This document shows positions 6,253-48,400 of a stretch of 64,000 bases of DNA, piece after piece (within the stretch, counting starts at the first letter, position 1; each line of letters begins with the position of its first letter). The notes beneath the pieces were generated by a model that had not been told where the DNA came from, ran no database searches, and saw only the letters and a program-made list of their open reading frames with translations. The stretch is from an uncultured Gammaproteobacteria bacterium (GTDB lineage Bacteria; Patescibacteriota; Patescibacteriia; UBA9934; GWF2-40-263): positions 1,886-65,885 of the forward strand of contig CAYNRK010000006.1 in assembly GCA_964399675.1 (NCBI GenBank), written 5' to 3'. Both the position numbers and the translations under genes were made by a program.

Positions 6253-6445
6253 AACCTCCGACGAACCCCCAGGCCACCACCAACAGGTACGTTGTATAAT
6301 TTCGCCAGCACGAGCGAAGCGAGTCTGCCGAAATTATACAACGTGACTGTCCCCCATAATTCTCTACGAAGTCTGCCCGCAGCTCAGCTGCGGGCAGACT
6401 TTTCTAACCCCCCCCTTAATCCCCCCTTGAAAAGGGGGGAACTTC
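6253..6445. repeat. Family-B leader-like repeat, copy 1 (orphaned): CCTCCGACGAAC..., a long perfect hairpin ACGTTGTATAATTTCG/CGAAATTATACAACGT, and a G/C-rich distal hairpin
   Basis: It aligns with 44600-44775 and 48171-48400. On the minus strand it reads extended -10 (TTGTATAAT), hairpin, then GGAGG. Confidence 0.6.
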
Positions 6446-6447
6446 GA

Positions 6448-6975
6448 TTAAATCTTATACAAATACAAATTTGGTGAACCTTTGATCTCGTCAACTTTTA
6501 CAGAATCCCATTCAGGAATTGGCCAAACATAACTTACAACTTTGGTGCCCGGCTTTAACTCCTTTTCCAACTTTGGTTTAATTTTTTTGTAAGTTTCAGG
6601 CATTAAAAAAAGATAGACTGCTGTGTAGTCAGAAAGATCATGAGCAAATGCATTTGATAAAACTATTCTTACTTGACTATGTTTTCCAAAAAAATTCTGA
6701 AACTTTCCAATTAAAACTTGCAAAATGGAAAGCTCCACTCCGGTCGAAGCTGCGCCTGTATTTTTTGAAAGATGCCTGCAAACCCTGCCGTTTCCGCAAC
6801 CTAACTCAACAAACCGATCGTCTTTATTAAGTTCTAACAAATTCTCAATACGTTTTAAATCACGTTTCCACGTTGGCACCCATGGCGCTCCTGAAATCCC
6901 AGCGTATGCTGCTGAGATAAGTAGAATCATGAATATAACAAAAAGAAAAGTCCACATAATAAACAAGAATAACAC
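6448..6975 (-). CDS. Class I SAM-dependent methyltransferase with an N-terminal TM anchor
   Basis: It has the motif I VELGCGNG. It is a paralog of 15696-16238 and both end in LYLYKI. Confidence 0.6.
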   Translation of the reverse strand: MLFLFIMWTFLFVIFMILLISAAYAGISGAPWVPTWKRDLKRIENLLELNKDDRFVELGCGNGRVCRHLSKNTGAASTGVELSILQVLIGKFQNFFGKHSQVRIVLSNAFAHDLSDYTAVYLFLMPETYKKIKPKLEKELKPGTKVVSYVWPIPEWDSVKVDEIKGSPNLYLYKI

Positions 6976-7040
6976 AGGTTCACTTGATCGATAAGATCAT
7001 TTCGTTTATCATCTTTATCATTAAACTTAAAAATAAAATC

Positions 7041-7778
7041 ATGAAACCTTTTTTGATATTACAACTAAGACCTGAAAACCCAACATCTGATAATGAATTT
7101 GAGGCAATTGTAAATTTTAGCGGCCTTGATGAATCAGAAACTCATAGAATTAGAATGGAACAAGGTGGTCTGCCAGAAATAAATCTTAATGATTATTCTG
7201 GAATCATTGTTGGAGGCGGGCCATGGAACGTAAGCGATGATCAATCAAAAAAATCTAAAGAACAAAAAAACGCAGAAGTTTGGCTTGATAAATTAATTGA
7301 TGAAGTTATTGAAAAAGATTTTCCATTTCTTGGAGCTTGCTATGGATTTGGTGCGCTGGCCATAAAAAATAACGGCGTGGTAAATAAGGAACAATACACT
7401 GAGGAACCTAGTGCTATTGATATTACACTGACAGATGAAGCAAAAAACGACCCTTTGTTGCAAGGGCTTCCTGAAACATTTCGCGCAATGGTTGGTCACA
7501 AAGAATCTTGTCAAAAACTTCCTGAAAATGCTGTCTGGCTTGCCAGGGCTGAGGCATGTCCTTATGAAATGTTTCGTATTGGAAAAAATATTTACGCAAC
7601 GCAGTTCCATCCTGAACTAGAAACAGAGGGTTTTTGTCTTCGTGTTGAAATTTATAAAAATGCTGGCTATTTTCCACCAGAGGATGCTGAAAAATTAAAA
7701 GAAGAAGCAAGAAAAGAAAACATCATTGTGCCAATGATGCTATTAAAAAAGTTTATTGATACTTATCGATCTGAATAA
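7041..7778 (+). CDS. Class I glutamine amidotransferase-like protein
   Basis: The start is ATG at 7041 (MKPFLIL). It has the GATase1 nucleophile elbow GACYGFGA and a His later (FHPE). Confidence 0.55.
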   Translation: MKPFLILQLRPENPTSDNEFEAIVNFSGLDESETHRIRMEQGGLPEINLNDYSGIIVGGGPWNVSDDQSKKSKEQKNAEVWLDKLIDEVIEKDFPFLGACYGFGALAIKNNGVVNKEQYTEEPSAIDITLTDEAKNDPLLQGLPETFRAMVGHKESCQKLPENAVWLARAEACPYEMFRIGKNIYATQFHPELETEGFCLRVEIYKNAGYFPPEDAEKLKEEARKENIIVPMMLLKKFIDTYRSE

Positions 7779-8179
7779 TTAGAAATAAATCTAAAACAAG
7801 TTCCAATACAAATTGCTATAAGCAAAGAAATAATTGCTCTGACAACAAAAAATCTTACACTAAAATAATCTGCCTCAATAAAAAATCTTGCAGGGCCAAT
7901 AAGAGTCTGACCTGTAATAAACGCAGCAATTATACTCAATGGCATGCCTTTTTTATTAAGGTCTCTTAAAAGCGGAAGGTAAGCTAAAATTGGTCCAGGT
8001 GTTGCAACCCCAACAGCAGAAGCTTCAACAATGTTCTTTTCGTTTTCAACAAAAATTGCCTTTATCTTTTTTCTTGGCAAATAAACGCTAATAATTTGTG
8101 AAACAATAATCGCAATAATAACAACTGGCAAAATGTCAATGAAATTTTCTATTGCAGTTTTAAACAATTCAAAAATCAT
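7763..8179 (-). CDS. Putative permease, C-terminal half (polytopic membrane protein)
   Basis: It is a 138-aa hydrophobic ORF translationally coupled to 8176-8589. Confidence 0.4.
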   Translation of the reverse strand: MIFELFKTAIENFIDILPVVIIAIIVSQIISVYLPRKKIKAIFVENEKNIVEASAVGVATPGPILAYLPLLRDLNKKGMPLSIIAAFITGQTLIGPARFFIEADYFSVRFFVVRAIISLLIAICIGTCFRFISNYSDR

Positions 8180-8589
8180 AAAAACATTTCAAGTAAGAAA
8201 CCACCAAGGGTTATGAAAATCACACTAAGAATCATTCTGGTGCTGTAAAATTTAATTCCAAAATATTTAATTTCCGCAATATCTCTAATAACAGACTCGC
8301 TAATTGTTTCTCCTGCAATCAATGCAAAAACAACTCCAAAAGAAGCCCCCTTTAAAAACAAAGCGTATGCAATTGGATATGTAACATATCTTGGAATTGG
8401 AAGAACTACTCCCAAAAACGCTGCTATTGGAATTGCAATCCAAACACTATTTCCAAGCAATATGTTCAAAGAACCTTCAGGTAAATATATTTCGATAATT
8501 GCCCCAGCAAAAACTGCAACAAAAAATATGGGCAAAATAAAACCCAATTCTTTTATGGACCCTGTTGCAATTGCTTTGACTTTACTCAT
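8176..8589 (-). CDS. Putative permease, N-terminal half (polytopic membrane protein)
   Basis: It is hydrophobic throughout (137 aa). It overlaps the next ORF by 4 nt (ATGA), which suggests a two-part permease or a split gene. Confidence 0.4.
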   Translation of the reverse strand: MSKVKAIATGSIKELGFILPIFFVAVFAGAIIEIYLPEGSLNILLGNSVWIAIPIAAFLGVVLPIPRYVTYPIAYALFLKGASFGVVFALIAGETISESVIRDIAEIKYFGIKFYSTRMILSVIFITLGGFLLEMFL

Positions 8590-8607
8590 TAAACCATTAT
8601 ATCAAAT

Positions 8608-9615
8608 TTAATAATCTAGACCTTCTCTAGCCTTCACCCCTGAATAAAAATAATGATTTCGAAGTTTCATTTCAGTAACAAGATGAGCTGCATCTAAAAA
8701 CTCTTGCGGAGCATTGCGGCCGGTCATAATAAGCTCGGTTGTTTTTGGTTTAAGAGAAAGGATTTCTAACACTTCTTTAACTGACAGCATATTGAGATCT
8801 GTTGTTGAATTGATTTCGTCCATAATCACAAGATCATAATTTTGTTCAAACATTTTTTTGACTTCTTCCAGTCCCCGCCTTGCTTCTGCTTTATCAATGT
8901 CCTGAATTGAAAAATCAAACCTGCCGGTTTTTGGATCAATTCTGTCGCGGCCGGTTGCCAAATAATCAATTTTATTTTTTTCTAAAGCACTGCGCTCTGA
9001 GTAATGCGCTTCCCCACCCTTATCAAAATATACGATCCCAACTTTCTTTCCCGCACCTGTTGCGCGAATTGCTGTTCCCAAACTAGCAGTTGTTTTTCCT
9101 TTTCCATTTCCAGTATAAATTTGAATTAATCCGTAACCTTTGTGGCCTTTTATTGATTCTCCGGAACTTATTAACAAACCTTCACTCTCCTGAATTTTTC
9201 TTGCTGCTCGTGCGGGTTTCTCCTGAATGTCATCAGGTAAAGGCTTGCGAAGATCGATCCAGGTAAATTCATTGTGCTCGTGCGACAACTTAACCTCAAC
9301 ATCCTGAATTGGAAGAACGTAAAAAATTCCAATGATTGGTTCGTTTTCAACATCACCCTTAACTCCCCAAAGATCCACATGAACCGGTCTTGCATTTGTT
9401 GGATCGATTGTAATTCCAGTTTCCTCAAAGACTTCACGTTTCAGACAATCTCCTGGTTTTTCACTTTTGTCCATACGCCCGCCAGGCAATGTCCATTCTT
9501 TTGTCCGCCAATGCACACCTTCCCCACTTTCACGAATAAACAAAACTTTTCCTTGCGGATTCATTAGCAGTACTTTATTAGCAACGTATTTTTTTTCCAT
9601 ATATTTCTTTTGCAA
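8608..9615 (-). CDS. Fusion protein: N-terminal NUDIX hydrolase plus C-terminal cob(I)alamin adenosyltransferase (CobA/CobO/BtuR family)
   Basis: The Nudix box is GGRMDKSEKPGDCLKREVFEETGI. The C-terminal half has the P-loop GNGKGKTTASLG and a VIMDEI...MTGR architecture typical of CobA/CobO. Confidence 0.6.
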   Translation of the reverse strand: MQKKYMEKKYVANKVLLMNPQGKVLFIRESGEGVHWRTKEWTLPGGRMDKSEKPGDCLKREVFEETGITIDPTNARPVHVDLWGVKGDVENEPIIGIFYVLPIQDVEVKLSHEHNEFTWIDLRKPLPDDIQEKPARAARKIQESEGLLISSGESIKGHKGYGLIQIYTGNGKGKTTASLGTAIRATGAGKKVGIVYFDKGGEAHYSERSALEKNKIDYLATGRDRIDPKTGRFDFSIQDIDKAEARRGLEEVKKMFEQNYDLVIMDEINSTTDLNMLSVKEVLEILSLKPKTTELIMTGRNAPQEFLDAAHLVTEMKLRNHYFYSGVKAREGLDY

Positions 9616-9680
9616 AGTGTAGCAAAAAACAAGCTTAAATTAAATCCACAACCACAATCTAATCTTACATACCAAATCAC

Positions 9681-9706
9681 ATTTAAGTGACGGCCGTAAC
9701 TTAAAT
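9681..9706. promoter_or_regulatory. 26-bp near-perfect palindrome ATTTAAGTGACGGCCGTAACTTAAAT about 70 bp upstream of the Nudix-CobO gene
   Basis: It has dyad symmetry and sits in the promoter region. This is a candidate operator. Confidence 0.3.
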
Positions 9707-9890
9707 GAAACTTTTAAAATTTTTTAAATTCAAAATACTCTCCCTTCCATAAACGGTTGGGAGATTTTTGTTGAGTTTTGAAATCCGTGGGCCTGGCGTA
9801 GTGCGTTGTACGGGACCATACGTAATACCTGTGGAGTAAACACAGAAAATAAGATACGCTGGTGATGACATTTTTTAATAATCACAGCGT

Positions 9891-10280
9891 ATGACAATAG
9901 CAATAGATGTTTCAATATTAGAATTATTTCTACCAAAAGGAACCATGGACTGGTTCGATATTGTAGAAAGTAAAAACACAGACAATGAAGTCTGTATTAT
10001 TTTAGAAGAAAAAAATATACCACCGCTTTTACCAGAACAGAAAGATAAAAAAATAACCTCAAAAGGTTTTTACAGCATCACCATTACAGACTTTCCAATA
10101 AGAGGAAAAAGGACGTCGCTCACATTTAGGCGTAGAAGATGGAGGGTTGAAGGCCAACAAGAACTTCTCAAACGAGACATTCAGCTCTGTGCTCCGGGAA
10201 CACAGCTTGAAAAAGAATTTGCTTCTTTTTTAAAAGAACAAAGCGGAGAAGTCCGCCATCTCTTTGACGAGTATTGCTGA
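9891..10280 (+). CDS. IS transposase, N-terminal part (orfA)
   Basis: It is a 129-aa ORF. The downstream ORF overlaps it by 17 nt in the +1 frame. Confidence 0.5.
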   Translation: MTIAIDVSILELFLPKGTMDWFDIVESKNTDNEVCIILEEKNIPPLLPEQKDKKITSKGFYSITITDFPIRGKRTSLTFRRRRWRVEGQQELLKRDIQLCAPGTQLEKEFASFLKEQSGEVRHLFDEYC

Positions 10281-11247
10281 GTGGTGCTGTTTGGAAGCTA
10301 AACTCTTCGAACGTCAGTACAAAGACCACCTGAGTAATTACAAAACATGGAACCAGAAGTCACATGCTGACAAATGGCTACTCTTTGAACAAAACATCAG
10401 CTCACATTTAAGTCTGGATGAGGTGTCCATCTCAAACGGGGAGCTGTATACAATACTCACCAACAAAGCAGCCAAAGGAGGTAAAGGGTCTTTGGTTGTT
10501 ATATGCAAAGGAACCAAAACAGAAGATATTGTTAAGGTTTTTAAACGTATTCCATCAATTGAAAGGCAAAGAGTTCTTGAAGTCACCTTAGACTTCTGTC
10601 CAAGTATGGAAAAGTCTGTAAGGCATGCTTTCCCTAATGCCCGAGTTACAAGCGACCGTTTTCATGTTCAAAAGATTGTTACAGAAGCATTGCAGGATAT
10701 GCGCATTGAACTTCGACATAAAGCACTGAAATCTGAAAACAGAGAAGTTGAAAAAGCACGAAAGAAGTGTAAGAAACAAGGTAAGCAATACAAACAACCT
10801 AAGCTAAAAACATACTCAAACGGAGATACAAAGAAACAACTTTTAGCCAGAAGCAGATATCTTCTTTTCAAACCAAAGAGTAAATGGACAGACAACCAAA
10901 AAGAAAGGGCTGTTATTTTGTTTGAAACATTTCCTGAATTAGAAAGTGCTTACAATCTTTCAATGATGTTTAGGAACGTATATGAACAAGCTAAAACAAA
11001 AAAAGAAGCCAAACGGCTACTTTCAAACTGGTACAGCAAGGTTGAAAAAAAAGACTTCCCACATTTCATCACTACTGCCGAATACATTCAAAACCATGAA
11101 GAGACAATCCTTAACTATTTTCCAAACAGATCTACCAATGCTTCTGCTGAATCTTTCAATGCAAAGCTTAAAGGTTTCAGAGCACTGGTCAGAGGGGTAA
11201 GAGACAAGAAGTTTTTTCTTTATAGGGTTTCTAAGATTTGGGGGTAG
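10264..11247 (+). CDS. IS transposase, DDE catalytic part (ISL3-like, orfB); the transposase is frameshifted and possibly inactive
   Basis: It reads DEVSISNGELYTIL...VTSDRFHVQKIV...NASAESFNAKLK, which resembles the DDE_Tnp_ISL3 pattern. ISL3 transposases are normally one ORF. Confidence 0.55.
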   Translation: MTSIAEWCCLEAKLFERQYKDHLSNYKTWNQKSHADKWLLFEQNISSHLSLDEVSISNGELYTILTNKAAKGGKGSLVVICKGTKTEDIVKVFKRIPSIERQRVLEVTLDFCPSMEKSVRHAFPNARVTSDRFHVQKIVTEALQDMRIELRHKALKSENREVEKARKKCKKQGKQYKQPKLKTYSNGDTKKQLLARSRYLLFKPKSKWTDNQKERAVILFETFPELESAYNLSMMFRNVYEQAKTKKEAKRLLSNWYSKVEKKDFPHFITTAEYIQNHEETILNYFPNRSTNASAESFNAKLKGFRALVRGVRDKKFFLYRVSKIWG

Positions 11248-11396
11248 TCCACAGGAATTGCGTATGATCCGTTGTACGGTTTATCACCCAGTACAATAGG
11301 GGTGCAAATCCCCTCAGGTCCACGGATTTCAGAATTTGACTTAAGCTAAAATTTATGTCACTCTTTTTTTGGTTGATAAGCCGTACAAACACTATT

Positions 11397-11459: not shown

Positions 11460-14400
11460 TTAACTACACCCACTTGTTGCTCCACAGTTCAAACATTTAT
11501 AACACGCTGCATTGCGAACCATTATGGAACCGCATGTATCGCATGCAGGTGCATCGGACTGATTATCAAATGTTTGAGTGTGAGCGCCTTGTTTTTCAAA
11601 TAATTTTGTTTGTTCAACAGCATCGTCTGATTCTTCTATCTTAATCAATGGTGTAATATCTTCAGCTTTTACATCACCAGCCACTTCATCCTCCTCAGCA
11701 ACATTTATACCTAAAGAAAGTTGTGCTTCTCGTGACAAAAACTTAATTGCAATCCAACGGAAAATGTAATCTGTAATAGACTTTGCAATACGAATTTGCG
11801 GATTGTTTGTGTAACCGGATGGCTCAAAGCGCATGTGCACGAACTTGTTAACCAAAACTTCGAGTGGCACACCATATTGCAAACCAATAGAAACAGAAGT
11901 TGCAAAACTATCCATTAACCCTGAAATTACAGATCCTTCTTTTGACATTGTTACAAATATCTCACCAGGCATTCCATCATCATACAAACCAACAGTAATA
12001 TATCCTTCGTAATTTCCAACAGAAAACTTGTGCGTTATAGATTTACGCTCGTCTGAAAGCCGTCTGCGTCGGAGTTTTCGCTCTTGCATAGTCAATTCTC
12101 TAGGCTCCTCCTTTTCGCCCAGGCTAAAGCCTGGGGCTACCTCCTCTTTAACCTCTCGGACATCTCGAACCTCTTTTTTATTAGCAGCCTTTGCATCACT
12201 TTCCTTTGAAGTTGTTAAAGCCTGTTGTCGTTTGGAACCGTCTCTATAAATCGCAATTGCTTTGAGCCCAAGCTTCCATCCTTGCATATACACATCAGCT
12301 ATATCCTGTGGAGTTGCCTCATGTGGCATGTTCACGGTTTTGGAAATTGCGCCGGAAATAAACGGTTGAACAGCAGCCATCATTTTTAAATGCCCATTGT
12401 AATGAATCGTTCGCTCGCCATTAGCTGGCTTAAACGCACAATCAAATACTGGCAAATGCTCCTCTTTTATATGCGGTGCGTGTTCAATTGTGTCTGTTTC
12501 CTCGATATAAGCCAAAATTTCCTTTTGTTCTGTTTCTGTATATCCTAACTTTTGAAGCGCCTCTGGCACAGTACCATTAACCATCTTTAACATTCCACCA
12601 CCAACTAACCATTTATACTTCACAAGCGCAATGTCTGGCTCAATACCTGTTGTATCACAATCCATTAAAAATGAAATAGTGCCTGTTGGAGCCAAAACGG
12701 AAATTTGAGCATTTCTAAGTCCATACTTGCTTCCATGTTCAACAACATTATCCCAAGCCTTTTTCGATTCTGTTAACAAATCCGCTGAAACTCCTTCTGA
12801 AGTCATTTCATAAGCTGCGTCACGATGCATGCGCATAACATCAATGCACGGCTTTTCGTTCTGTTTAAATCCAGTAAAAGCACCAAGCTTTTCTGCAATT
12901 TTAGTAGATTGATAATAACAATGTCCGCTTTGAAGCGAAGTAATTGCCGCTGCCAGATTTCGCCCTTCATCAGAATCATAAGCCAGCCCATCACCCATCA
13001 AAAGCGCCCCTAGGTTTGCATAACCAATTCCAACCGGTCTGTAATCTAAACTGTTTTGTTCAATAGCAGGAGTTGGATAAACAGCATTCCCAATAATTAT
13101 CTCCATAGCTGTGATGATAATTTCATTGGCTTTTTTAAATGCCTCAACATCAAAAACCATTTCACCATTTACTGACTTTCGAAACTTAAGAAGATTAAGC
13201 GAAGCAAGATTACAAGCACTGTCATCAAGGAACATGTATTCAGAACAAGGATTGGATGCATTGATTCGGTCGGTATTTTTACATGTGTGCCAGTCATTAA
13301 TGGTTGTGTCGTATTGCATTCCAGGATCTCCACACAACCAAGCTGCTTCGGCAATCTTGCCCATTAGTTCTTTTGCATTGTATTTTAGACTTGGCTTGCC
13401 GGTTAACACTTCTTTTGTTTCCCATTCATCGCCATTTTCAACAGCTTGCATAAACTCATCATTCACACGAACAGAGTTGTTTGCGTTTTGAAAATAAATG
13501 GAAGAATAAGCTGGACCATCAATCGAACCATCATAACCGGCGTCCATAAGTGTCCAAGCCTTTTTTTCTTCCTCAACCTTGCATGTAATAAATTCTTCAA
13601 TGTCTGGATGATCAATATTAAGAATAACCATTTTGGCAGCTCTTCGTGTTTTTCCACCACTCTTGATCACACCAGCAAATGAATCCAATCCTTTCATAAA
13701 AGACACTGGACCCGAAGCGCGCCCATTGCTTCCACCAAGATATTCTTGTTTTGATCGTAATTTTGAAAGGTTTGATCCAGCACCTGAGCCACCTTTGAAC
13801 AACATGCCTTCTGTAACACACAAATTGAGAATGGATCGCATGTCATCATGAACCGAATTTATAAAACACGCAGAGCATTGTTGAGGTCTTGTTGTCCCAA
13901 CATTAAACCAAACAGGCGAATTAAATGCAGCTTTCTGATTAACTAAAATGTGATGAAGCTCAGCCTCAAACGCGTCTGAGTCTTCCTTTGTTTCAAAATA
14001 TCCATCCTTGCGTCCCCAATTTGAAATCGTTGTTGCAACACGTGAAACTATCTGTTTGACTGAATGTTCACGATCATCTTTTCCAACTGTTCCAAAAAAG
14101 TATTTCGCAACCACAATATTTGTTGCTGTTTGAGACCAGGTTTTTGGTACCTCAACATCTTTTTGTTCAAAAACCAACTCGCCTTTAAAATCAGTGATTG
14201 TTGCATCCCGTGTTTCCCATTCAATCTCATCATATGGATGCACGCCTTCTTTTGTAAAATATCGATCTACTTTAATGCCTTTACCATATTGATCTTCCTT
14301 TGCATTATCGCGAGAACTTGAGCGATAACCTAAATATTTTTTTGAAACATGAATCAAATTGTTATCAACAAATGTTAAATTCACAATCTCTCGCACATCA

Positions 14401-14924: not shown

Positions 14925-15503
14925 CTAGAAACCCATGGTCAAATTGATGTTTGGTTTCTCTTGTTGTTTTAGCTCAAAATCCACTGGAATAGCTCGACGC
15001 CCACCCAATCTATCATTGTAAGCCAGCGCCTTATACTTAAGTCCGTATTCATAGACATCACGAGTTGCACGCACGTCTTCTATACAATAATCCTTGATCT
15101 TTTGAATCTCACCTTGCTTCCACCACTCAACAGCCATTAGCCCATGAGCGGTCTTCCCTTTCCCAACCGTTGCCTTGGCAACATCATCAAGCTTTAATCG
15201 AAATCCAAGAGCCTTATGAATTTCCGCCAAAATATCCAGGTTTGGAAAGGTTAGAAAATCACCACTGTAATAATTATTCATGATTGGAAGATCAAAATGG
15301 ATTTGGTTGTATCCGATAATCCGATCAGCGTGTTCTAGCCGTGGCCATAAATCTGGCAGCTCGTGAACTTCAAAAGCTTCAAAAGTATCAGTCTCATAAA
15401 AATAACAGCCGATCACTGATATCTTCAAAGCTTTTAAGTTAAAACCTCCAACATCGTTGAAGGTATTTTGTGTTTCAATATCTAGAACAACCTCTTTTTT
15501 CAT
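14925..15503 (-). CDS. DEDDy-type 3'-5' exonuclease (DnaQ/RNase D-like fold)
   Basis: I chose the start at ATG 15503 (MKKEVVLDIETQ). The Exo I motif is LDIET, Exo II is GYNQIHFDLPI and Exo III is YCIEDVRATRDVY. The ORF-track extension comes from MITE copy 2. Confidence 0.6.
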   Translation of the reverse strand: MKKEVVLDIETQNTFNDVGGFNLKALKISVIGCYFYETDTFEAFEVHELPDLWPRLEHADRIIGYNQIHFDLPIMNNYYSGDFLTFPNLDILAEIHKALGFRLKLDDVAKATVGKGKTAHGLMAVEWWKQGEIQKIKDYCIEDVRATRDVYEYGLKYKALAYNDRLGGRRAIPVDFELKQQEKPNINLTMGF

Positions 15504-15516
15504 AACCACAATATTA

Positions 15517-15677
15517 GAGACTGTTGGAATACTCCAGTGCGAGATCAAAGTGAGAAATTTTTTTCAGAAATAGTTTCAGGACGACGAGACGATATGGACA
15601 TATCGTTGAGGAATCATGAAACTATTTCTGGGAAAAATAGCCGCTTTGGAGCCGTGCTGGAGTATTTCAACGGTCTC
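15517..15677. mobile_element. Family-C MITE-like element, copy 2
   Basis: It is near-identical to 4393-4544, including the TIRs GAGACTGTTGGAATACTCCAG / CTGGAGTATTTCAACGGTCTC. Confidence 0.65.
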
Positions 15678-42745: not shown

Positions 42746-43345
42746 GTGAGCCAGTTCTTTTCAGTGGCCGCGAACGTTTTGATCGTCGTGGTCATGGTGA
42801 TCTACTTCAAACAGGTTGTGAAAGGGGTTTCAGTCCCGAACCCATCGGCCTGGCTTATCTGGATCATCATTGGGCTCATGAATATGGTGAGCTACTTCCT
42901 GGTCGTGCGCGGTGATCTGTGGCAATCGTTGATCACCATTGTTACCTTCGCAGGTTTCATATTCATCTTTGTTTATGCCACAGTGAAAGGAAAATTCGCC
43001 GGCTTTAGCAAAGCGGACATGTTCTATTTCATCCCGGCTCTTGTGGTCGGAGTGATATGGCAGACAACCGGCAATGCAGATCTTGCAAACATCAGTTTGC
43101 AAATCGTGTACCTCCTCTCTTACCTCCCGATCGTACACGGACTACTCAGTCATAGACTCCGCGAAAAGTCACTGCCCTGGAATCTGGCGTCGATATCCTA
43201 CTGCCTGATGATTCTGGCCATTGTGACCGCTGACTCCTGGCGCTGGATTGCGCTCGTCCATCCAATTGCCAATGGAATCGTCGGAAACGGCAGCGTTATC
43301 CTGGCCATCCATCTGCAAGCACGAAAAACTCGGAAGGCAAAGTAA
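42746..43345 (+). CDS. Hypothetical 6-TM membrane protein (199 aa), GC-elevated cassette 6
   Basis: The GTG start lies 7 nt after AAGGAGG. GC is about 52% by eye. Confidence 0.45.
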   Translation: MSQFFSVAANVLIVVVMVIYFKQVVKGVSVPNPSAWLIWIIIGLMNMVSYFLVVRGDLWQSLITIVTFAGFIFIFVYATVKGKFAGFSKADMFYFIPALVVGVIWQTTGNADLANISLQIVYLLSYLPIVHGLLSHRLREKSLPWNLASISYCLMILAIVTADSWRWIALVHPIANGIVGNGSVILAIHLQARKTRKAK

Positions 43346-43396
43346 GCCGCCCGTCAGCCTCGTTGGAGAATCAAATCTCCCACGGGGTGTTTCTTT

Positions 43397-44599
43397 TTAA
43401 AGAGGAAACAACTTTTCCAACTCGTCCACGTACTTTTTAACTGAATGCTTTTCAGCTTCCTTTTGAATCTTTTCTGTCCAATCCCAATACTTTTCTTTAT
43501 TATCAATCAAATCTTGAATCTTGCGCACAAGGTTTTTTTTATTTCCCGGTTCAAACAACCAACCGTTCTCCCCGTCTTTTACAAGCTCAGGAATACCTCC
43601 GATGCTTGCGGCAAGCACAGGCACACCAACACAGAAACTTTCATAAATAATCGTTGGTGAATTTTCATAACAGATTGATGGCAAAACCATTACGTCAGAG
43701 AAGGCAAGAAGTTTATTTAGATTGCCCATTGAAACAAAACCATGTCGATGAATACGAGAATCACGTCTACACCATTCATTTACATATTCTTCCAGTGATC
43801 CTGTTCCTGCAATATATAACTCAACTTCATCGCCAAAATCATTCATTGCTTCTAAAAGGAGAGTGATCCCCTTGTGCATTTCAAGCTGTCCAACAAACAC
43901 CAACCGCACCGGACCTGGAATTCGCTCTTTTCTCATTGCTTGTATTTTGAGCGAAACTGGATTTGGAATAACTTTAACATCAACTTTTTTGAACATGCCC
44001 CTTTCTTTATAAAACTGTGCCAAAAACCTTGAGGGTGAAATAAAAACATTTGGCAAGCCAAAGACTTTCTCAATCGTGCGCTCATACCAAGTCCGAAACA
44101 ACGATTCATTTAGCCAAGTTTTTTCATTTCCATACATAAGCAATCCGCTTGGCACTGAAAGTTGAACATCATGAAGAGTGTGAATGTGAAAAATTTTCTT
44201 TTTCTGAATGGTCTTGGATATTTTCAAACCAATCCCCTTTAAATTGTGAGTGATAATAATATCTGGCTTTTCCTTTTCAATTACTAATTTCATTGCTTTG
44301 GCAGGCAACGGACTAAAAAGATCAATCAAATGCCACAGTGCTCGAACTAAAAATGGCTTATTGCCCTCTGTTAAATGATAAAGATTCAGAGGATAAAACC
44401 TATAAACATCTTCTATTTGTCTTTCAGTAATCTGTGGAAAAAGACTTGAAATACCACTGTACTTTTTTGTACTAAGCACAAACACTTTGTGACCACGGCT
44501 ATACAACTCATCAGCAATTCTTTGTGCAACAAGCTCGGCCCCGCCCCTGACCATTGGTGGATATAGATTTGAAACAATACCAATTTTCATATTTTTCAT
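43397..44599 (-). CDS. Glycosyltransferase family 4 (GT-B, group 1)
   Basis: The start is ATG at 44599 (MKNMKIGIV). The C-terminal E-x7-E block is ENSPTIIYESFCVGVPVLAA. The ORF-track extension covers repeat B2. Confidence 0.65.
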   Translation of the reverse strand: MKNMKIGIVSNLYPPMVRGGAELVAQRIADELYSRGHKVFVLSTKKYSGISSLFPQITERQIEDVYRFYPLNLYHLTEGNKPFLVRALWHLIDLFSPLPAKAMKLVIEKEKPDIIITHNLKGIGLKISKTIQKKKIFHIHTLHDVQLSVPSGLLMYGNEKTWLNESLFRTWYERTIEKVFGLPNVFISPSRFLAQFYKERGMFKKVDVKVIPNPVSLKIQAMRKERIPGPVRLVFVGQLEMHKGITLLLEAMNDFGDEVELYIAGTGSLEEYVNEWCRRDSRIHRHGFVSMGNLNKLLAFSDVMVLPSICYENSPTIIYESFCVGVPVLAASIGGIPELVKDGENGWLFEPGNKKNLVRKIQDLIDNKEKYWDWTEKIQKEAEKHSVKKYVDELEKLFPL

Positions 44600-44775
44600 A
44601 ATCCTCCGACGAACCATCAGGTTATCATCAACAGGTACGTTGGATAATTTCGCCAGCACGAGCGATAGCGAGTCTGCCGAAATTATACAACGTGACTGTC
44701 CTTCAAAGTTCTCTACGGAGATTGCTTCGCCCCTTTTCACGAAAGGGGGCTCGCAACGACGCAGGGGGCAATGAC
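44600..44775. repeat. Family-B leader-like repeat, copy 2 (immediately upstream of the GT4 start codon)
   Basis: It reads AATCCTCCGACGAAC...ACGTTGGATAATTTCG...CGAAATTATACAACGT...GCCCCTTTTCACGAAAGGGGGC. Confidence 0.6.
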
Positions 44776-44781
44776 GCAAAG

Positions 44782-45948
44782 CTAATAAGATCGATTGCTC
44801 TGTTGAGACAAGACTGAACAATAAGTTTGTTCAAGCTTGGTAATCAAAGGATCCCAGTGAAATTCTGCTTCTGCTCTGGCGCGTGCTGATGCGCCGAGTC
44901 GCTTTCGCAAATCTGTTTGTTCAAGCAAAAGCAAAATCGCTTTTTTAAGCTCCTCTTCATCACCTGCCGGAACAAGCAACCCCGTATTCCCATCTTGCAC
45001 CACTGTTCTTACTCCTGGCAAGTCTGAGGCAATTGTTGGAATCCCACTTGCTGCAGCTTCGAGTGCAACCAAACCAAATGCTTCAGCACGTTGCGTTGAT
45101 GGAAAAACATGAATGTCTGAACCACTGTAATACTTAGGCAAATCCTTATCTGAAACATTACCAACAAAAACAACGTGATCAAAAAGACCCAACTTCTCCG
45201 CTGTTGCTGCATAGCTTTGCTGAAGGCTTCCGGAACCAACAATCAACAATTTCCAATCATAAGATTTTAAACTGGAAAGTGTTTGCAAAAGAATTGGTAG
45301 GCCTTTGAAGTGATGTGCAGGATCAAGACCGCCAACAAATAAAAGAACTGGAGTTGTTTTTTTAATATTATGACTTTCTTTTATAAAAACATTGTCGCTT
45401 GGACGAAATCGTTCCAAATCAATTCCAAACGGATGAATCTCTAATCGATCCATAGCGCCATGTACATCTGCAAGCGCGGACGATTCTGCATAATCTTTTG
45501 TGCTGGCAAGTATACGATCCACACGCCCAATTAACCATGGAAACAAAAGTCGTCTATGCATTCCAAAAACCGCACCCTTAACACCGGAAGCAACTGCATC
45601 CATATGATACGAGAGAACTAATCCTTGATCCTTTCGCATGGCCTTTCGCACAACAACCGGTTCAGCACCTCCAAAAAACGGATAGTGAAGATGAACCAAA
45701 TCAAAACCTGACAAGCGTTTGTAAAGCGATGGCATTACCCCAGCATTTCCAACATGAATCAAACTTGGAATACGATGGATATGTTTTGGATCCTCAACCT
45801 CCTGTTTTTTCGTTGTAAAAACATGGACATTATATCCTCTGTCTCTTAGACGCTCTGTGTACTCAAACGCAACATTCCCCATCCCACCCCGATATGGTGG
45901 ATAAGTACAAACAACTTGAGCGATTTTGATTTGTTTTTGTTCTACCAC
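44782..45948 (-). CDS. Glycosyltransferase family 4
   Basis: It reads QRAEAFGLVALEAAASGIPTIASDLPG and has GT-B architecture. Confidence 0.65.
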   Translation of the reverse strand: MVEQKQIKIAQVVCTYPPYRGGMGNVAFEYTERLRDRGYNVHVFTTKKQEVEDPKHIHRIPSLIHVGNAGVMPSLYKRLSGFDLVHLHYPFFGGAEPVVVRKAMRKDQGLVLSYHMDAVASGVKGAVFGMHRRLLFPWLIGRVDRILASTKDYAESSALADVHGAMDRLEIHPFGIDLERFRPSDNVFIKESHNIKKTTPVLLFVGGLDPAHHFKGLPILLQTLSSLKSYDWKLLIVGSGSLQQSYAATAEKLGLFDHVVFVGNVSDKDLPKYYSGSDIHVFPSTQRAEAFGLVALEAAASGIPTIASDLPGVRTVVQDGNTGLLVPAGDEEELKKAILLLLEQTDLRKRLGASARARAEAEFHWDPLITKLEQTYCSVLSQQSNRSY

Positions 45949-46994
45949 ACAATAAATTGTTTTAATATCGACCAGATGATTTGAAGCACGGGGTTTCCAA
46001 TTTCCTCAACAACTTTACTTGATGTTTCTTGATGATCAATCTTTCCTGTAAAAATTGACACAATCTTTTCATCACTAACTTTTCTAATAATTTTTGAGCG
46101 CTTACGAGACTTAAACACGTAAACCCAAGTGCTTGGTTTTAGAAATTGAAAATAAACAAATAACTTTTCTTTGATCCAACCGCCTTTTATTGCAAAAAAC
46201 AAAAGCGCAATTTCCATTACAAACAAGAATGGCAAAAGAACCAAAATCGTTCCGCACTTAAGATGCGAAAAATGAACTAAAATTCTATTTCGTTCCATCC
46301 AATAAAACTTTGTAATGGATCGCTTGAATTCATAATCATGAAAAGCAATCGATTTCATTGATAGAACGTTTTTGAATCCAGCCAAACGAATTCTCCAACC
46401 AAGTTCCAAATCCTCGTGATAGAGAAACAAAAACGGATCAAGAAGACCAACTTGTTTTAAAACTGTTGCTCTGTACAAAACCGCTGCTCCACTTGCGTAT
46501 GCAATTTCTTCCCCGTCTTTGCGATCAACATCAGACACTTTTGCACCGTTGTCTCTGACAAAACCAAAACCCAAAAAATGAACCATGCCACCTGTTGAGT
46601 TTAAAACATTTTCTTGCCTCCAAAGTTTCATTACTGACTGAACTGATCCAATCTCTTTATCTGACTCAGCAAGTGCAACTGCTTCTTTAATTGCTTGGGG
46701 TTCAAGTTTTAAATCATTATTGTGAAGATAAATATAATCAGCACCCTCAAGAAGTGCGTGTTCGGTTCCCAAATTATTTCCACCAGCAAATCCCAGATTC
46801 TTTCCACTTGGAAAAAATGTAATACCATCCATTTTTCTTAAAACCTCTTGCGACCCATCTTTTGAATCATTATCAACCACAATAATTTCCAACCTGTCTT
46901 TTGGATAGTCAAGATTGTCTAAAGCAGAAAAAACCTCTTTAAGGTATTTTTTTCCATTATAAGATAGGTAAATTATCGCAACTTTTGGAAGCAT
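45942..46994 (-). CDS. Glycosyltransferase family 2 with a C-terminal membrane region
   Basis: It has an N-terminal GT-A domain with VDNDSKDGS (DxD) and TM helices in the C-terminal third. Confidence 0.6.
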   Translation of the reverse strand: MLPKVAIIYLSYNGKKYLKEVFSALDNLDYPKDRLEIIVVDNDSKDGSQEVLRKMDGITFFPSGKNLGFAGGNNLGTEHALLEGADYIYLHNNDLKLEPQAIKEAVALAESDKEIGSVQSVMKLWRQENVLNSTGGMVHFLGFGFVRDNGAKVSDVDRKDGEEIAYASGAAVLYRATVLKQVGLLDPFLFLYHEDLELGWRIRLAGFKNVLSMKSIAFHDYEFKRSITKFYWMERNRILVHFSHLKCGTILVLLPFLFVMEIALLFFAIKGGWIKEKLFVYFQFLKPSTWVYVFKSRKRSKIIRKVSDEKIVSIFTGKIDHQETSSKVVEEIGNPVLQIIWSILKQFIVW

Positions 46995-46995
46995 A

Positions 46996-47160
46996 GATTT
47001 TTAATTGAAATAGATTCGAAATGCGGAAATAGATTGAAATATGTAGAAATATGTGGAAATAAGGTTGTGTTCAATCTATTTCTACTTATTTCAATTAGTT
47101 TCCATTTATTTCTATCTATTTCCGTACTCTGAATTCGTTTCCACCTATTTCTACTTATAA
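46996..47160. repeat. Array of helically phased GAAATA(G/T) direct repeats followed by mirrored TATTTC repeats (a long imperfect inverted repeat) upstream of the GT2 gene
   Basis: There are about 6 forward and about 7 reverse copies at about 10-11-bp spacing. The left half is the approximate reverse complement of the right half. Confidence 0.5.
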
Positions 47161-47492
47161 ATCTCCTCATCAACCTCCTCAATCGCCAATTTTCTCACTA
47201 ATTTTGTAATCTCCTGTTCAATAGCCTCCATTTTAACAAACATCCGAAACACCAAAAAGAACAAACCAATAATTGAAAGGTAAATAATCAGATCAGCTCC
47301 TCGACCAACACCAACCAATCGAGCCAGCACATCAGAAGTCTGTGGCAAAAGCGTTACAACAGAAGCTGCAATCCAAAAAACAACCCAAAACAAAAGCCAG
47401 GCTATTGTAAGCCCTCCCTTTTTGAATTGCGTAATTGTCCTTGTTATGGCAAAGAGCGCAAACGCAACAATTAATCCTTGAATGATTGACAT
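47151..47492 (-). CDS. Small membrane protein, DUF2304-like partner of the GT2 polyprenyl-phosphate glycosyltransferase
   Basis: It is 113 aa with 3 TM helices and lies immediately downstream of the DPM1-like GT2 with 1-nt spacing, as is typical for this pairing. Confidence 0.45.
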   Translation of the reverse strand: MSIIQGLIVAFALFAITRTITQFKKGGLTIAWLLFWVVFWIAASVVTLLPQTSDVLARLVGVGRGADLIIYLSIIGLFFLVFRMFVKMEAIEQEITKLVRKLAIEEVDEEIYK

Positions 47493-47493
47493 A

Positions 47494-48159
47494 TCACATC
47501 ATGATTCTACGCAAGACTAATTTTACAAGAGTTTTAATTCCAACAAAAAATCCCTGACCTTTTGAAAGTGAGTACTCAGTGTAGATTGCTTTTATTGGAA
47601 CTTCTTTTAGAACAAGTTTGTTGCGCTTAGTTTCAGCAATAATTTCTGAGGAAACTTCCATGCGATTTGTTTGCAGCTCAATCTTTGAAAGCGCAAACTC
47701 TGTAAACGCACGATATCCGGATTGACTATCAGACACCCAGGCACCAAACAAAACAAAAGTTGTTAAGTTCCCAAGAATCTGAGCAACCTGTCTGTACCAT
47801 GGCATTCCAACTCTGGTTTTCATTCTTGTTCCAATCACAACATCCGCCCCTTTTTCTATTGCATGTACAAACTTGTTTATCTCTGATGGATCGTGTTGGC
47901 CATCAGCATCCAATGTGACAACAACCTCAGCATTTCGTTTTTTTGCCATTTCAAAACCAGTACCAATCGCTGCACCCAACCCCCTATTTATCACATGACT
48001 AACAACAACAGCACCTTGCACACGAGCAATCTGCGCAGTCCGATCAGTTGACCCATCATCCACCACCACAACCTCATCAACAAAATCCCGCGTTCCTTTC
48101 AGAACCTCGGCAATCGTTGTTTCTTCATTGTAAGCAGGAATAACTGCAATAATTTTCAT
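47494..48159 (-). CDS. GT2 polyprenyl-phosphate glycosyltransferase (DPM1/GtrB-like)
   Basis: It reads MKIIAVIPAYNEE...VVVVDDGSTDRT and is 221 aa. Confidence 0.65.
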   Translation of the reverse strand: MKIIAVIPAYNEETTIAEVLKGTRDFVDEVVVVDDGSTDRTAQIARVQGAVVVSHVINRGLGAAIGTGFEMAKKRNAEVVVTLDADGQHDPSEINKFVHAIEKGADVVIGTRMKTRVGMPWYRQVAQILGNLTTFVLFGAWVSDSQSGYRAFTEFALSKIELQTNRMEVSSEIIAETKRNKLVLKEVPIKAIYTEYSLSKGQGFFVGIKTLVKLVLRRIMM

Positions 48160-48170
48160 AGATTGATCTT

Positions 48171-48400
48171 AATCCTCCGACGAACTCTCAGTATCTCCAC
48201 AACAGGTACGTTGTATATAATTTCGCCAGCACGGAACAAAGTGAGTACTGCCGAAATTATATACAACGTGACTGTCCCCCATAATTCTTTACGAAGATTG
48301 CTTCGCTTCGCTCGCAATGACACAAGGTGCAGGACACGAGGGAATTCTTTACGGAGATTGCTTCGCCCCGTTTCACGAAAGGGGGCTCGCAACGACGCAT
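48171..48400. repeat. Family-B leader-like repeat, copy 3 (with an internal duplication), immediately upstream of the GT2 start
   Basis: The perfect hairpin arms are ACGTTGTATATAATTTCG / CGAAATTATATACAACGT. The 2-nt TA insertion is present in both arms. Confidence 0.6.

Follow-up and report, generated by a model that had tools for sequence, protein, structure and literature searches.

What kind of element is the non-coding sequence, here called family B, that occurs three times on the minus strand of the window, the 64,000-nucleotide stretch of DNA analysed here from the genome of an uncultured Uhrbacteria (CPR) bacterium? The first-pass annotation had described a conserved 5' leader, consisting of an extended -10, a perfect stem with compensatory changes, a G/C hairpin and GGAGGA, placed in front of envelope glycosyltransferase genes. 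Our analysis partly confirmed this observation, with an anatomy different from that described, and partly supported its interpretation. On balance, family B is probably a palindromic intergenic repeat of the REP/REPIN/ERIC/Correia/MITE kind, non-coding and specific to this lineage, inserted in a formerly compact glycan operon.

Copies and anatomy of the repeat

The three homologous copies claimed earlier are indeed present on the minus strand, with three matches against zero expected and pairwise identities of 81–88% across 124–140 nt; the sample comprises these three copies in ~74 kb from one population. The core, GGACAGTCACG...CGTACCTGTTG, lies at 6281-6352 (copy 1), 44629-44701 (copy 2) and 48200-48277 (copy 3), always in the sense orientation relative to the flanking genes. 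The composite that holds copy 1 (6229..6447, minus strand) runs from a methyltransferase stop codon (6448-6450) to the terminator of a convergent foreign gene, and its palindromic unit, CTTCGTAGAGAATT ... GTTCGTCGGAGG (6255..6371), has arms at 6329-6344 and 6289-6304, TATAAT at 6333-6338 and a loop at 6309-6324. Copy 2 belongs to an intergenic insert (44591..44781, minus strand) between the stop codon of the upstream GT4 gene (44782-44784) and the ATG of the downstream GT4 gene (44590); its unit, CTCCGTAGAGAACT ... GTTCGTCGGAGG (44603..44720), has arms at 44678-44693 and 44637-44652, with TATAAT at 44682-44687. Copy 3 likewise belongs to an insert (48160..48458, minus strand) from the epimerase stop codon (48459-48461) to the GT2 ATG (48159), and its unit, CTTCGTAAAGAATT ... 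GTTCGTCGGAGG (48174..48296), has 18-nt arms at 48252-48269 and 48208-48225, TATAAT at 48256-48261 in the 5' arm and a loop at 48229-48246. Kinship among the copies is mosaic: the 5' tail of copy 1 is copy-3-like (1/20 differences), and its loop and 3' end are copy-2-like (0/16 differences in the loop).

Each unit, of ~117–123 nt, is one extended imperfect palindrome throughout, in which an outermost helix (CTYCG : CGGAG), a second (GAAY : GTTC) and a third (GACAG : CTGTT) enclose a 16–18-bp core, ACGTTGTA(TA)TAATTTCG : CGAAATTA(TA)TACAACGT, and innermost a short helix (CAG : CTG) with a variable 16–18-nt loop. The consensus fold covers the full unit, GGAGG included. A long hairpin is predicted in each copy, with z-scores of -5.2, -3.7 and -5.6 for copies 1, 2 and 3, and in 3/3 copies the sense RNA folds better than the antisense RNA (-47.1/-44.5/-48.6 versus -36.2/-41.8/-34.9 kcal/mol); a U-tract 3' of the hairpin is absent in all three copies. 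The perfect stem reported for every copy holds for copy 1, in its shorter 16-bp form (6329-6344 with 6289-6304), and for copy 3, where a TA insert in both arms leaves a perfect 18-bp stem; it fails for copy 2, in which C 44643 faces T 44687 without compensation, the kind of stem mutation that the first-pass annotation had itself named as evidence against its reading. The G/C hairpin described between stem and GGAGG has no conserved counterpart, the 14-nt spacer there being the most variable segment (9/14 columns variable).

These properties bear on the earlier proposal that the repeat is a conserved structured 5' leader or cis-regulatory RNA (riboswitch-like, attenuator or protein-binding), whose pairing is under selection and which controls envelope glycosyltransferase genes. 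We consider this proposal very unlikely, even though the stable folds, the advantage of the sense strand, the shared sense orientation, the symmetric TA indel and the position of two copies shortly before glycosyltransferase start codons all speak for it, as does an outer helix that would sequester GGAGG. Several C-to-U changes in the outer helices, some of them one-sided, retain G.U pairs in the sense RNA, and these mildly favour a constraint at the RNA level. The compensatory changes offered as proof of structural selection, however, did not materialise: 23/24 stem pairs are invariant, one is broken, none shows a compensatory substitution, and the sole compensated change is the TA/TA indel, which falls within a (TA)n run. 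Across the three copies, 5/58 columns vary in the arms as against 16/32 in loop and spacer (p=1.8e-5), and since the arms are invariant while loop and spacer differ by 30–55% among copies, sequence recognition rather than pairing alone is indicated. A variable spacer between invariant arms is normal in REPIN/MITE-type repeats, in which symmetric changes are common (PMC3116915).

The -10-like hexamer and the GGAGG block

The extended -10 (TGnTATAAT) was said to precede the stem, but the hexamer lies inside the 5' arm, of which TTGTATAAT is a portion, and because the stem is palindromic this 9-mer can be read on the plus strand as well. TATAAT is a perfect hexamer in all copies; TG adjoins it directly (TGTATAAT), so that TGnTATAAT is not matched, no -35 was found at any copy, and a promoter scan called nothing at 3/3 copies. 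Moreover, a transcript started from a TATAAT within the stem would lose the 5' arm, and the promoter and RNA-hairpin readings are therefore mutually exclusive.

It is improbable, in our assessment, that family B is a DNA-level promoter or operator cassette which rewires genes into a regulon, with TATAAT as a real, perhaps bidirectional, -10 and the palindrome as the operator of a dimeric regulator, or with the conserved GAGAAY-N15-CGTT as an ECF-sigma-type promoter. Such a cassette would suit the operator-like conservation of the arm sequences, a new promoter would be useful where formerly coupled genes were parted by an insertion, and genes for an ECF sigma factor (61400-61948) and for two PaaX-like regulators lie in the vicinity. 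The perfect hexamer, counted in its favour as reading on both strands, is nevertheless not strictly kept, as the sole stem substitution of copy 2 faces the first T of TATAAT and destroys the plus-strand hexamer. Both -35 and TGn are missing, and TATAAT stands ~85–95 nt 5' of the ATG, as against 6–11 nt in the recognisable promoters of this genome (9/36 genes, versus 0/36 in a control window). Arms of 16–27 bp around a spacer varying from 16 to 18 nt are unlike known operators; the AAC-to-CGT spacing of 15 falls short of the 16–17 usual in ECF-type promoters, the region upstream of the ECF sigma gene holds no matching motif, and transcription from the orphan copy 1 would run into a terminator.

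As for the GGAGGA reported about 12 nt before the ATG, GGAGG stands 12 nt 5' of the GT4 ATG in copy 2 and 14 nt 5' of the GT2 ATG in copy 3, whereas copy 1 reads GGAGGT, has TTG in place of ATG and is followed by no gene on the minus strand that it could regulate. GGAGG was not found upstream of the remaining 34/36 genes checked, yet it is kept in the orphan copy 1, which makes a structural end likelier than a ribosome-binding site; since the consensus palindrome extends through the unit ends, GGAGG constitutes the 3' terminal arm. Copy 1 continues directly into the intrinsic terminator of the convergent gene (6199..6229, plus strand), whose T-tract and the A-rich 3' end of the copy are reverse complements of each other. 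That gene (plus strand, ATG ~5373, end 6170, 65% GC) is a horizontally acquired high-GC gene, and the site is unrelated to the operon holding copies 2 and 3. A systematic placement before glycosyltransferase genes is thus not seen: copy 1 is an orphan, and among at least eight glycosyltransferase-type genes in ~70 kb of the genome only two carry family B, six or more nearby being free of it. The portability attributed to the unit does hold, as it occupies three unrelated places.

Insertion sites in related genomes

The operon was compared with that of five relatives (L008/L010/L011, L012/L013, L136, L137), which have the same gene order and a GT2 with 75–80% identity. At the epimerase/GT2 junction, 299 nt long in the window, the genes overlap by 4 nt in five of five relatives (L008, L010, L011, L012, L013, L136, L137), and the window and the relatives share the codon at which the epimerase ends. 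The GT4/GT4 junction, 191 nt long in the window, is a 4-nt overlap in three of the four relatives whose sequence reaches it (L008, L010, L012, L137) and an 8-nt gap in the fourth (L136). With an intergenic distance of 0 or at most 8 nt and no element at either site in the five relatives, the idea of a leader that is conserved finds no support, and the cis-regulatory reading is already weakened by this comparison. Because these genes overlap or stand almost end to end in all the relatives compared, a mobile-type intergenic repeat is indicated, not a conserved regulatory leader; judged from these sequences, copies 2 and 3 are apparently derived insertions into a compact epimerase-GT2-DUF2304-GT2-GT4-GT4 operon. 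Presence in one lineage may, formally, also be compatible with loss in the ancestor of all sampled relatives. A third junction of this operon (46995-47150) contains a different palindrome with 57-nt arms, and at the matching junction in the relatives the genes either overlap or lie no more than 5 nt apart.

Searches with blastn and nhmmer found no family B in the relatives or in 1.24 Mb of retrieved loci, two scans of genome contigs, two of metagenome contigs and one of viral contigs yielded chance matches only, and nothing matched in the phage and plasmid collections. An Rfam scan with a cut-off as loose as E<=10 returned nothing but generic hairpins, which also counts against a leader. Within the population no polymorphism of the copies was seen, though they differ from one another by 12–19%, and recent movement is thus not apparent, which weighs against the mobile reading. 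The break points of many independent assemblies fall inside the element, as suits a repeat.

In every copy, the unit forms a mosaic with other REP-like hairpin modules, all on the minus strand. Upstream of copy 3 lie module A1 (GCGTCGTTGCGAGCCCCC..GGGGCGAAGCAATC, 48343..48398), of repeat family D8, then a solo left-end motif, CTCCGTAAAGAATT (48343-48356), and module A2 (GTGTCATTGCGAGCGAAGCGAAGCAATC, 48296..48323), a 26-mer of which is exact in 105 IMG/VR contigs. Copy 2 is preceded by module A (44720..44762), also of family D8 and 95% identical to A1 of copy 3, and in copy 1 its place is taken by a G+C hairpin, GTCTGCCCGCAGC-TGA-GCTGCGGGCAGAC (6371..6399). This mosaic is a BIME-like arrangement.

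A non-mobile origin has also to be weighed, in which ectopic recombination or gene conversion spread a local intergenic segment and intra-strand template switching (quasipalindrome correction) perfected the palindrome, with neither enzyme nor selection. The mosaic relationships among the copies would fit it, as would the partial or solo fragments GCGTCATTGC and CTCCGTAAAGAATT adjoining copies 2 and 3, and TTGAAAATT of copy 1 resembles the native GT4/GT2 start ATGAAAATT, which is gene-derived in the relatives, as though the copying had taken a gene start with it. Neither a target-site duplication at the copies nor a related transposase, RAYT included, was found in ~74 kb, and the window contains no Y1_Tnp gene; these absences weigh against mobility as well. 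We still hold this origin to be unlikely, as it leaves the entry of the first copy into a 4-nt gene overlap unexplained, gives no reason why one unit should have reached two junctions as well as an unrelated locus at a distance of 38 kb, and accounts through template switching for symmetry within a copy, not for arm identity between copies that differ by 30–55% in loop and spacer.

Known repeats and consequences for the operon

Among the known systems nearest to family B are REPINs and REP sequences, which are mobilised by RAYT (Y1 HUH) transposases (Bertels & Rainey 2011, PMC3116915; Corneloup et al. 2021, PMC8266576). Family B shares with REPINs two invariant inverted blocks around a less conserved spacer, a length of ~70–120 nt, an extragenic position, a predicted long hairpin in ssDNA or mRNA and symmetric pair-keeping changes, and in relative L012 the orthologous operon contains two Y1_Tnp genes flanked by REP-like hairpins. 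It differs in that no RAYT was found in ~74 kb and no GTAG stands immediately 5' of the stem, and in that its conserved ends, the CTYCGTARAGAAYT tail and the GTTCGTCGGAGG block, are asymmetric and its orientation is single. Enterobacterial BIMEs likewise are mosaics of palindromic units (compare modules A1, A2 or the G+C hairpin, then unit B) between co-transcribed genes, although unrelated in sequence; family B, like them, has no U-tract after it and is therefore probably transcribed through. BIMEs bind gyrase, IHF or Pol I and stabilise mRNA.

ERIC/IRU and the Neisseria Correia elements (CREE/NEMIS) are, like family B, imperfect palindromes of ~120 nt in transcribed intergenic DNA that can carry -10-like hexamers and whose long-duplex transcripts are plausible RNase III substrates. 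They exist in hundreds of copies, against three known for family B, which shows no TA target duplication, IHF-site evidence or sequence similarity to them. Classical TIR-bounded MITEs are comparably short, non-coding and dispersed near gene starts, with inverted-repeat ends, but in family B the palindrome takes in the whole unit, defined sharp ends and a target duplication are missing, and every copy is fused to other hairpin modules. The window does contain a MITE of the classical type, 161 nt long with a unique interior and sharp, perfect 21-nt terminal repeats, at 4393-4553 and 15517-15677, as well as a single-copy ISL3 transposase gene unrelated to family B. JUMPstart/ops and LoaP/RfaH-type antitermination leaders are similar as conserved non-coding sequences upstream of polysaccharide genes; family B, however, has no ops-like GGCGGTAG, lies within the operon and not at its head, and is not conserved in the operons of relatives, and the window showed no NusG paralogue.

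Under the mobile-type reading, the invariant arms would be held by sequence-specific recognition, whether by a copying enzyme, for which the best precedent is a Y1/HUH RAYT-type transposase working on a single-strand hairpin, or by a DNA- or RNA-binding protein of the host, and the symmetric TA indel may reflect either correction templated by the hairpin or inheritance from a variant master copy. The uniform orientation could arise if only one orientation is tolerated inside an operon, or from strand-specific insertion; a functional expression module would equally be expected to show such a shared orientation and to end, as 2/3 copies do, 12–14 nt ahead of a start codon. The host operon is probably transcribed from a leaderless-type promoter at the epimerase ATG. 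Family B, lying inside this transcribed operon, would thus be co-transcribed and fold in the sense mRNA as an interrupted hairpin of ~40 pairs which, having no U-tract, would not terminate transcription. Any effect on promoter activity, processing or translation is one that we infer: translation of the downstream gene would likely be uncoupled from that of the upstream gene, family B may provide a site of mRNA processing or stability, and GGAGG could act as a substitute ribosome-binding site.

The family-B repeat and its copies

A pattern scan of the window for the shared core GGACAGTCACG...CGTACCTGTTG located three matches on the minus strand (6281-6352, 44629-44701 and 48200-48277), against none in 100 shuffles. 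A profile HMM of the unit (nhmmer) likewise returned exactly three copies in the window, with no weaker match and none at the ISL3-family DDE transposase gene (PF01610; 9891-11247, plus strand), which is preceded by a 129-aa ORF and is single-copy in the collection by exact-protein look-up. The copies are 81-88% identical to one another over 124-140 nt, and their fold z-scores against shuffled sequence are -5.2, -3.7 and -5.6 for copies 1, 2 and 3, respectively. Given the shuffle result and these scores, the first-pass annotation was right to report both a repeat and a hairpin.

The surveyed DNA of this genome amounts to about 74 kb, comprising the window and contig extensions of 3.3 kb to the left and 6.4 kb to the right, neither of which carries a further copy. 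Across all contigs of the same population, recovered from several samples, the element is 100% identical in sequence, and in many of these assemblies a contig breaks inside it. Exact patterns were searched in collections that apparently do not include the source samples, although JGI contigs bearing the element exist (for example, locus L003). The flank pattern GGACAGTCACG-N40-70-CGTACCTGTTG found no relative of the element in GTDB representative genome contigs or JGI metagenome contigs, the inner-arm pattern gave seven matches in the GTDB contigs, all due to chance on checking, and the arm pattern gave a single chance match in metagenome and viral (IMG/VR) contigs. BLAST against phage and plasmid collections produced no match. 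When the element was translated in six frames and the products were joined into one protein query, probably a poor design, no mis-called ORFs over other copies came to light, and the corresponding HMMER search of 1.84 billion representatives yielded only two spurious low-complexity matches. The Rfam scan suggested by the first-pass annotation gave no meaningful match: Rfam 15 returned none at the gathering score and, at E<=10, just generic hairpin and miRNA matches far below threshold.

Anatomy and sequence constraint of the unit

RNAalifold analysis of the three copies predicted pairing across the whole unit through a series of helices which, from outside to inside, are CUYCG:CGGAG, GAAY:GUUC, GACAG:CUGUU, a 16-18-bp core and CAG:CUG, closing on a loop of 16-18 nt. 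The conserved block GTTCGTCGGAGG is thus the 3' arm of an imperfect palindrome of about 117-123 nt, whose 5' arm is CTYCGTARAGAAYT. This arrangement bears directly on the proposed promoter. The sequence TTGTATAAT, which had been placed upstream of the stem, is contained in the stem's 5' arm, ACGTTGTATAATTTCG, and since the stem is palindromic the plus strand contains this 9-mer too. An extended -10 of the form TGnTATAAT carries its TG at -15/-14; here, in TTGTATAAT, the TG abuts TATAAT, and the copy 3 counterpart is TGTATATAAT. No -35 is present at any copy, and the promoter scan called nothing at all three. Moreover, initiation from TATAAT as a -10 would place the transcript's 5' end past the 5' arm and leave it without the hairpin, so that the promoter and RNA-hairpin readings are mutually exclusive.

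The stem is perfect in copy 1 (16 bp) and copy 3 (18 bp), as described in the first pass, but not in copy 2, where an uncompensated T.C mismatch sets C 44643 opposite T 44687. The conserved G/C hairpin that had been reported between the stem and GGAGG is absent, and the 14-nt stretch at this position is the most variable part of the unit (9/14 columns). Nor does the element resemble an intrinsic terminator: the bases after its hairpin are GGTGG, GATGA or GTGGA, with no U-tract, and no minus-strand terminator was called at any copy.

Compensatory changes had been taken as a sign of selection on structure. In the 24-pair structure common to the three copies, 23 pairs are invariant, no pair has both of its bases altered and a single pair is disrupted, which, for these three sequences, does not bear out that interpretation. 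The sole 'compensated' change is a TA/TA indel located in a (TA)n run, and it could have arisen by slippage followed by hairpin-templated correction. The arms, of about 27 nt, are identical in all copies except for one substitution and one symmetric indel. Variable columns account for 5/58 in the arms, four of them belonging to the indel, versus 16/32 in the loop and spacer (Fisher p=1.8e-5), with the loop contributing 7/18. Together with the pair counts, this distribution indicates that the constraint on the arms lies in their sequence and not merely in their pairing. The RNAalifold covariation term was -0.21 kcal/mol, a value with almost no statistical power for three sequences. The sense strand folds better than the antisense strand (-47.1, -44.5 and -48.6 versus -36.2, -41.8 and -34.9 kcal/mol for copies 1, 2 and 3) and contains more G.U pairs (6, 1 and 5 versus 1, 0 and 1), a mild hint, not significant with three sequences, that a sense-strand transcript or single strand matters.

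At its 3' end the unit approaches a start codon in two of the three cases. The GT4 gene behind copy 2 (43397-44590, minus strand) and the GT2 gene behind copy 3 (47494-48159, minus strand) have their ATG 12 and 14 nt past the element end, respectively, and these are also the distances from its GGAGG. The annotated GGAGG before ATG therefore stands for copies 2 and 3; copy 1 reads GGAGGT and has no gene. A Shine-Dalgarno GGAGG would be expected 5-10 nt before the start codon and in general use across the genome. In a rough count based on the first ATG of each ORF, 34 of the 36 ATG-started genes in the window lack GGAGG, the two exceptions being those behind the element. By the same rough count, a TATAAT-like hexamer ends 6-11 nt before the ATG in 9/36 genes versus 0/36 in a control window, which suggests that leaderless-type initiation is frequent in this Uhrbacteria genome; the epimerase gene, first in the glycan operon, has TATAAT 7 nt upstream of its ATG. 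The GGAGG block pairs with the 5' end of the element and is kept in the orphan copy 1. Considering its near-absence at other starts and its presence in that orphan copy, we read GGAGG first as the structural end of the element; a role as ribosome-binding site may be secondary at most.

Operon junctions and the copy 1 locus in relatives

By the source names of GT2 homologues, the organism belongs to Candidatus Uhrbacteria, within Patescibacteria. The nearest other genomes encode GT2 proteins 75-80% identical to that of the window, and five of them were examined (L008/L010/L011, L012/L013, L136 and L137). All keep the gene order S8 peptidases, epimerase, GT2, DUF2304, GT2, GT4, GT4. At the epimerase-GT2 junction, occupied in the window by copy 3, the genes overlap by 4 nt in 5/5 relatives versus a distance of 299 nt in the window. 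At the GT4-GT4 junction, the position of copy 2, the relatives have a 4-nt overlap, or an 8-nt gap in L136, compared with 191 nt in the window. The epimerase ends at the same codon in the window and in the relatives, and the MKI starts of both genes downstream of copies 2 and 3 are native. Neither the five relatives nor a further 1.24 Mb of retrieved loci showed any similarity to the element. The compact orthologous junctions and the absence of the element from these genomes argue that copies 2 and 3 were derived by insertion into a formerly compact, translationally coupled operon, and on this comparison they are very probably lineage-specific insertions. The notion of a conserved 5' leader does not survive it, as none of the five relatives has a match to the element or more than an 8-nt gap at either junction.

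A third junction of the operon, DUF2304-GT2 (46995-47150), is opened by a different, imperfect palindrome of 156 nt with 57-nt arms of GAAATAG-like units (fold z = -5.8). In the relatives these genes overlap or lie <=5 nt apart, and in L012 a Y1_Tnp gene is found there. The operon of L012, likewise a Uhrbacteria genome, contains two such RAYT/IS200-like genes, one at this junction and one at the operon end (L012 9347-9455, 9891-10484 and 13907-14812), flanked by long REP-like palindromes, such as GTAGCCGCAGGCTTTAGCCTGCGCG...CGCGCAGGCTAAAGCCTGCGGCTAC and repeated AACGCAACCTGGTTGC units; a GTCATTCTGAGCGAAGCGAAGAATC module separates its GT2 and DUF2304 genes. Separately, AAACAACGT occurs just before the start codon at two non-homologous overlapping junctions (L008 ~13227-13237 and L012 ~8671-8681). 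The element arm contains ACAACGT, which can be set beside these junctions, a post hoc likeness that may be due to chance.

Placement in front of envelope glycosyltransferase genes, also part of the first reading, applies to copies 2 (GT4) and 3 (GT2) only, since copy 1 is an orphan and other genes of this type lack the element. Within the ~74 kb, it is absent from the GT2 gene at 45942-46994, the GT4 gene at 44782-45948 and a PMT_2-family gene, as well as from two GT4 genes and a Wzy-type gene past the right end of the window. Upstream of the epimerase, a perfect or near-perfect 36-nt palindrome, TGTACATTATTTTCTCATATGGGAAAATAATGTACA, occurs three times (49562-49597, 50136-50171 and 50674-50709), adjoining NUDIX and PaaX-like gene starts and lying ~90-120 nt upstream of the epimerase ATG. 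These palindromes resemble operator sites for the PaaX-like regulator, and it may be here that the glycan operon is really controlled.

Copy 1 has no downstream gene. After its GGAGGT come a mini-ORF of four codons and then TTGAAAATTAAG, which leads directly into a hairpin at 6199-6229, the plus-strand intrinsic terminator of a convergent gene. The latter is a 266-aa ORF on the plus strand (ATG at ~5373, to 6170) without a Pfam match, with a GC3 of 0.88 versus ~0.3 in host genes and with its own signals: a TTGACA-17-TATCAT promoter with TG, an AGGAGG and the terminator. This codon composition and the dedicated signals mark it as a foreign high-GC island of about 1 kb, which is no chimera because it is present in several independent assemblies. 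The island (~5200-6230) has 63-70% GC in a genome of ~39% GC, and its ORF carries lysine/glycine-rich 48-nt tandem repeats. A role of copy 1 as leader for ORF 5406-6212 or ORF 5860-6240, both on the minus strand, was rejected, as codon-position GC places coding on the plus strand. At the equivalent locus the element is absent from two relatives: in one, 80% identical, the methyltransferase gene is followed by another terminator hairpin, and in the other, 62% identical, by truD. No trace of a truD remnant was found after copy 1 (truD follows the methyltransferase in L135).

Classification, spread and meaning of the element

Each copy is fused upstream to other hairpin modules, which gives the region a mosaic, BIME-like organization and likens the element to BIMEs. 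A fused module, GCGTCGTTGCGAGCCCCC...GGGGCGAAGCAATC, lies upstream of copies 2 and 3, copy 3 additionally has GTCATTGCGAGCGAAGCGAAGCAATC and a solo CTCCGTAAAGAATT within its array, and copy 1 has a different G+C hairpin at the position of that module. The 26-mer GTCATTGCGAGCGAAGCGAAGCAATC (48296-48321) has exact matches in 105 IMG/VR contigs of diverse environmental origin (loci L028-L132), mostly as an inverted doublet with GGATTGCTTCG...CTCGCAATGAC at 20-40 nt, and so represents a very widespread REP/REPIN-like sequence; a full-text literature search for its string returned no paper. Another REPIN-like inverted doublet of widespread type, GTCATTTCGACCGAGCGAAGCGAG...CTCGCTATCGCTCGCTCGGGATGACA, separates two minus-strand genes ~0.5 kb past the window's right end in this genome (L138 5844-5937). 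The hairpin module CCCCCTTTTCAAGGGGG followed by (A/G)TTA(A/G)GGGGG recurs after genes here (6410-6438, 56408-56436 and L015 13219-13252), and near-identical modules of this type stand directly before ATG codons in phage contigs L028 and L097.

REPINs consist of two invariant inverted 16-mers with a variable spacer, and symmetric changes in them are common (PMC3116915). The family-B element is alike in its two conserved inverted blocks, less conserved spacer and hairpin. A REP-RAYT system also comprises a RAYT (Y1_Tnp-type) gene that the same REP flanks, and its repeats are numerous and over-represented outside genes. For family B, three copies were seen in ~74 kb, and two Uhrbacteria Y1_Tnp proteins matched nothing in the window by tblastn. 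A classical MITE has sharp terminal inverted repeats and a target-site duplication; the element ends, CTCCGTAGAGAAC and GTTCGTCGGAG, are inverted repeats, but no direct repeat flanks any of the three copies, each of which is joined at its left end to a further hairpin module. A MITE would also have a parent IS with matching terminal repeats, and in the window the profile HMM picked out nothing besides the three copies. The window does contain a true MITE of 161 nt (4393-4553 and 15517-15677; 92% identical), with 21-nt terminal inverted repeats, GAGACCGTTGAAATACTCCAG, perfect in the first copy and with 2 mismatches at one end in the second, each copy being at, or overlapping, the start of a minus-strand gene (3175-4482 and 14925-15548). 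A literature search on MITEs in Patescibacteria returned nothing relevant.

Two further candidates were discarded, and a third found no support. An integron attC is contradicted by the lack of both GTTRRRY and RYYYAAC in the arms, and JUMPstart/ops by the lack of GGCGGTAG. For an ECF-type promoter (GAGAAY-N15-CGTT) the spacing does not fit, and the region upstream of the ECF sigma gene showed neither a motif of this kind nor any other in common with the element. That gene, encoding a 182-aa ECF-type sigma factor, and its DUF5667 partner (60553-61948, minus strand) are divergent from an HTH_17 gene (62026-62439, plus strand); these genes lie upstream of a 1265-aa protein without a Pfam match, a BNR-repeat protein and two S8 peptidases.

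Taken as a whole, the reading of family B as an inserted palindromic intergenic repeat is the one we favor, with some reserve. Established for the element are its repetition, insertion, sequence-invariant arms, whole-unit palindrome, lack of a U-tract and location inside an operon. It would be co-transcribed and fold in the sense mRNA into a long duplex with interruptions, and it would abolish the stop/start coupling of the downstream gene, for which its GGAGG may stand in as a ribosome-binding site; it may also serve as a processing or stability site. The arms are presumably kept because something recognizes them, the best precedent being Y1/HUH transposases acting on single-strand hairpins. 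Ectopic recombination stays a live alternative as the spreading route, given that no target duplication and, in ~74 kb, no cognate transposase was found, and that copy 1 combines parts resembling copy 2 with others resembling copy 3.

An improbable reading, in our view, is that the inserted palindrome now works, by co-option, as an intercistronic RNA switch of a new kind in this CPR bacterium. Shine-Dalgarno sequences are almost lacking in this genome, which otherwise seems to rely on leaderless-type starts or on translational coupling. The element would then supply a GGAGG sequestered by the outermost helix of a hairpin with ~40 pairs, and translation of the downstream glycosyltransferase would need unfolding of the hairpin or RNase III cleavage. 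If this were true, surface-glycan genes would be individually tunable within one operon.

Under the favored reading, an inserted repeat, a tempting misinterpretation is corrected: a perfect hairpin with TATAAT and GGAGG before genes resembles a regulatory leader, but the relatives show that the insertion is recent. The features seen in the first pass were real; a conserved, structure-selected promoter-plus-leader fails on the comparison with relatives and on the pair counts. Three junctions of one operon have been opened by palindromic insertions where the relatives' genes overlap or lie <=8 nt apart, and these insertions necessarily alter the translation of downstream surface-glycan genes. 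Copies 2 and 3, moreover, form direct repeats at a distance of 3.6 kb, through which glycosyltransferase genes could be deleted or rearranged. Apart from these points, the element is of an ordinary kind. It adds to palindromic intergenic repeats, a known type, in a phylum with few such elements described, and indicates that they can colonize even the very small, tightly packed genomes of CPR bacteria (Patescibacteria).
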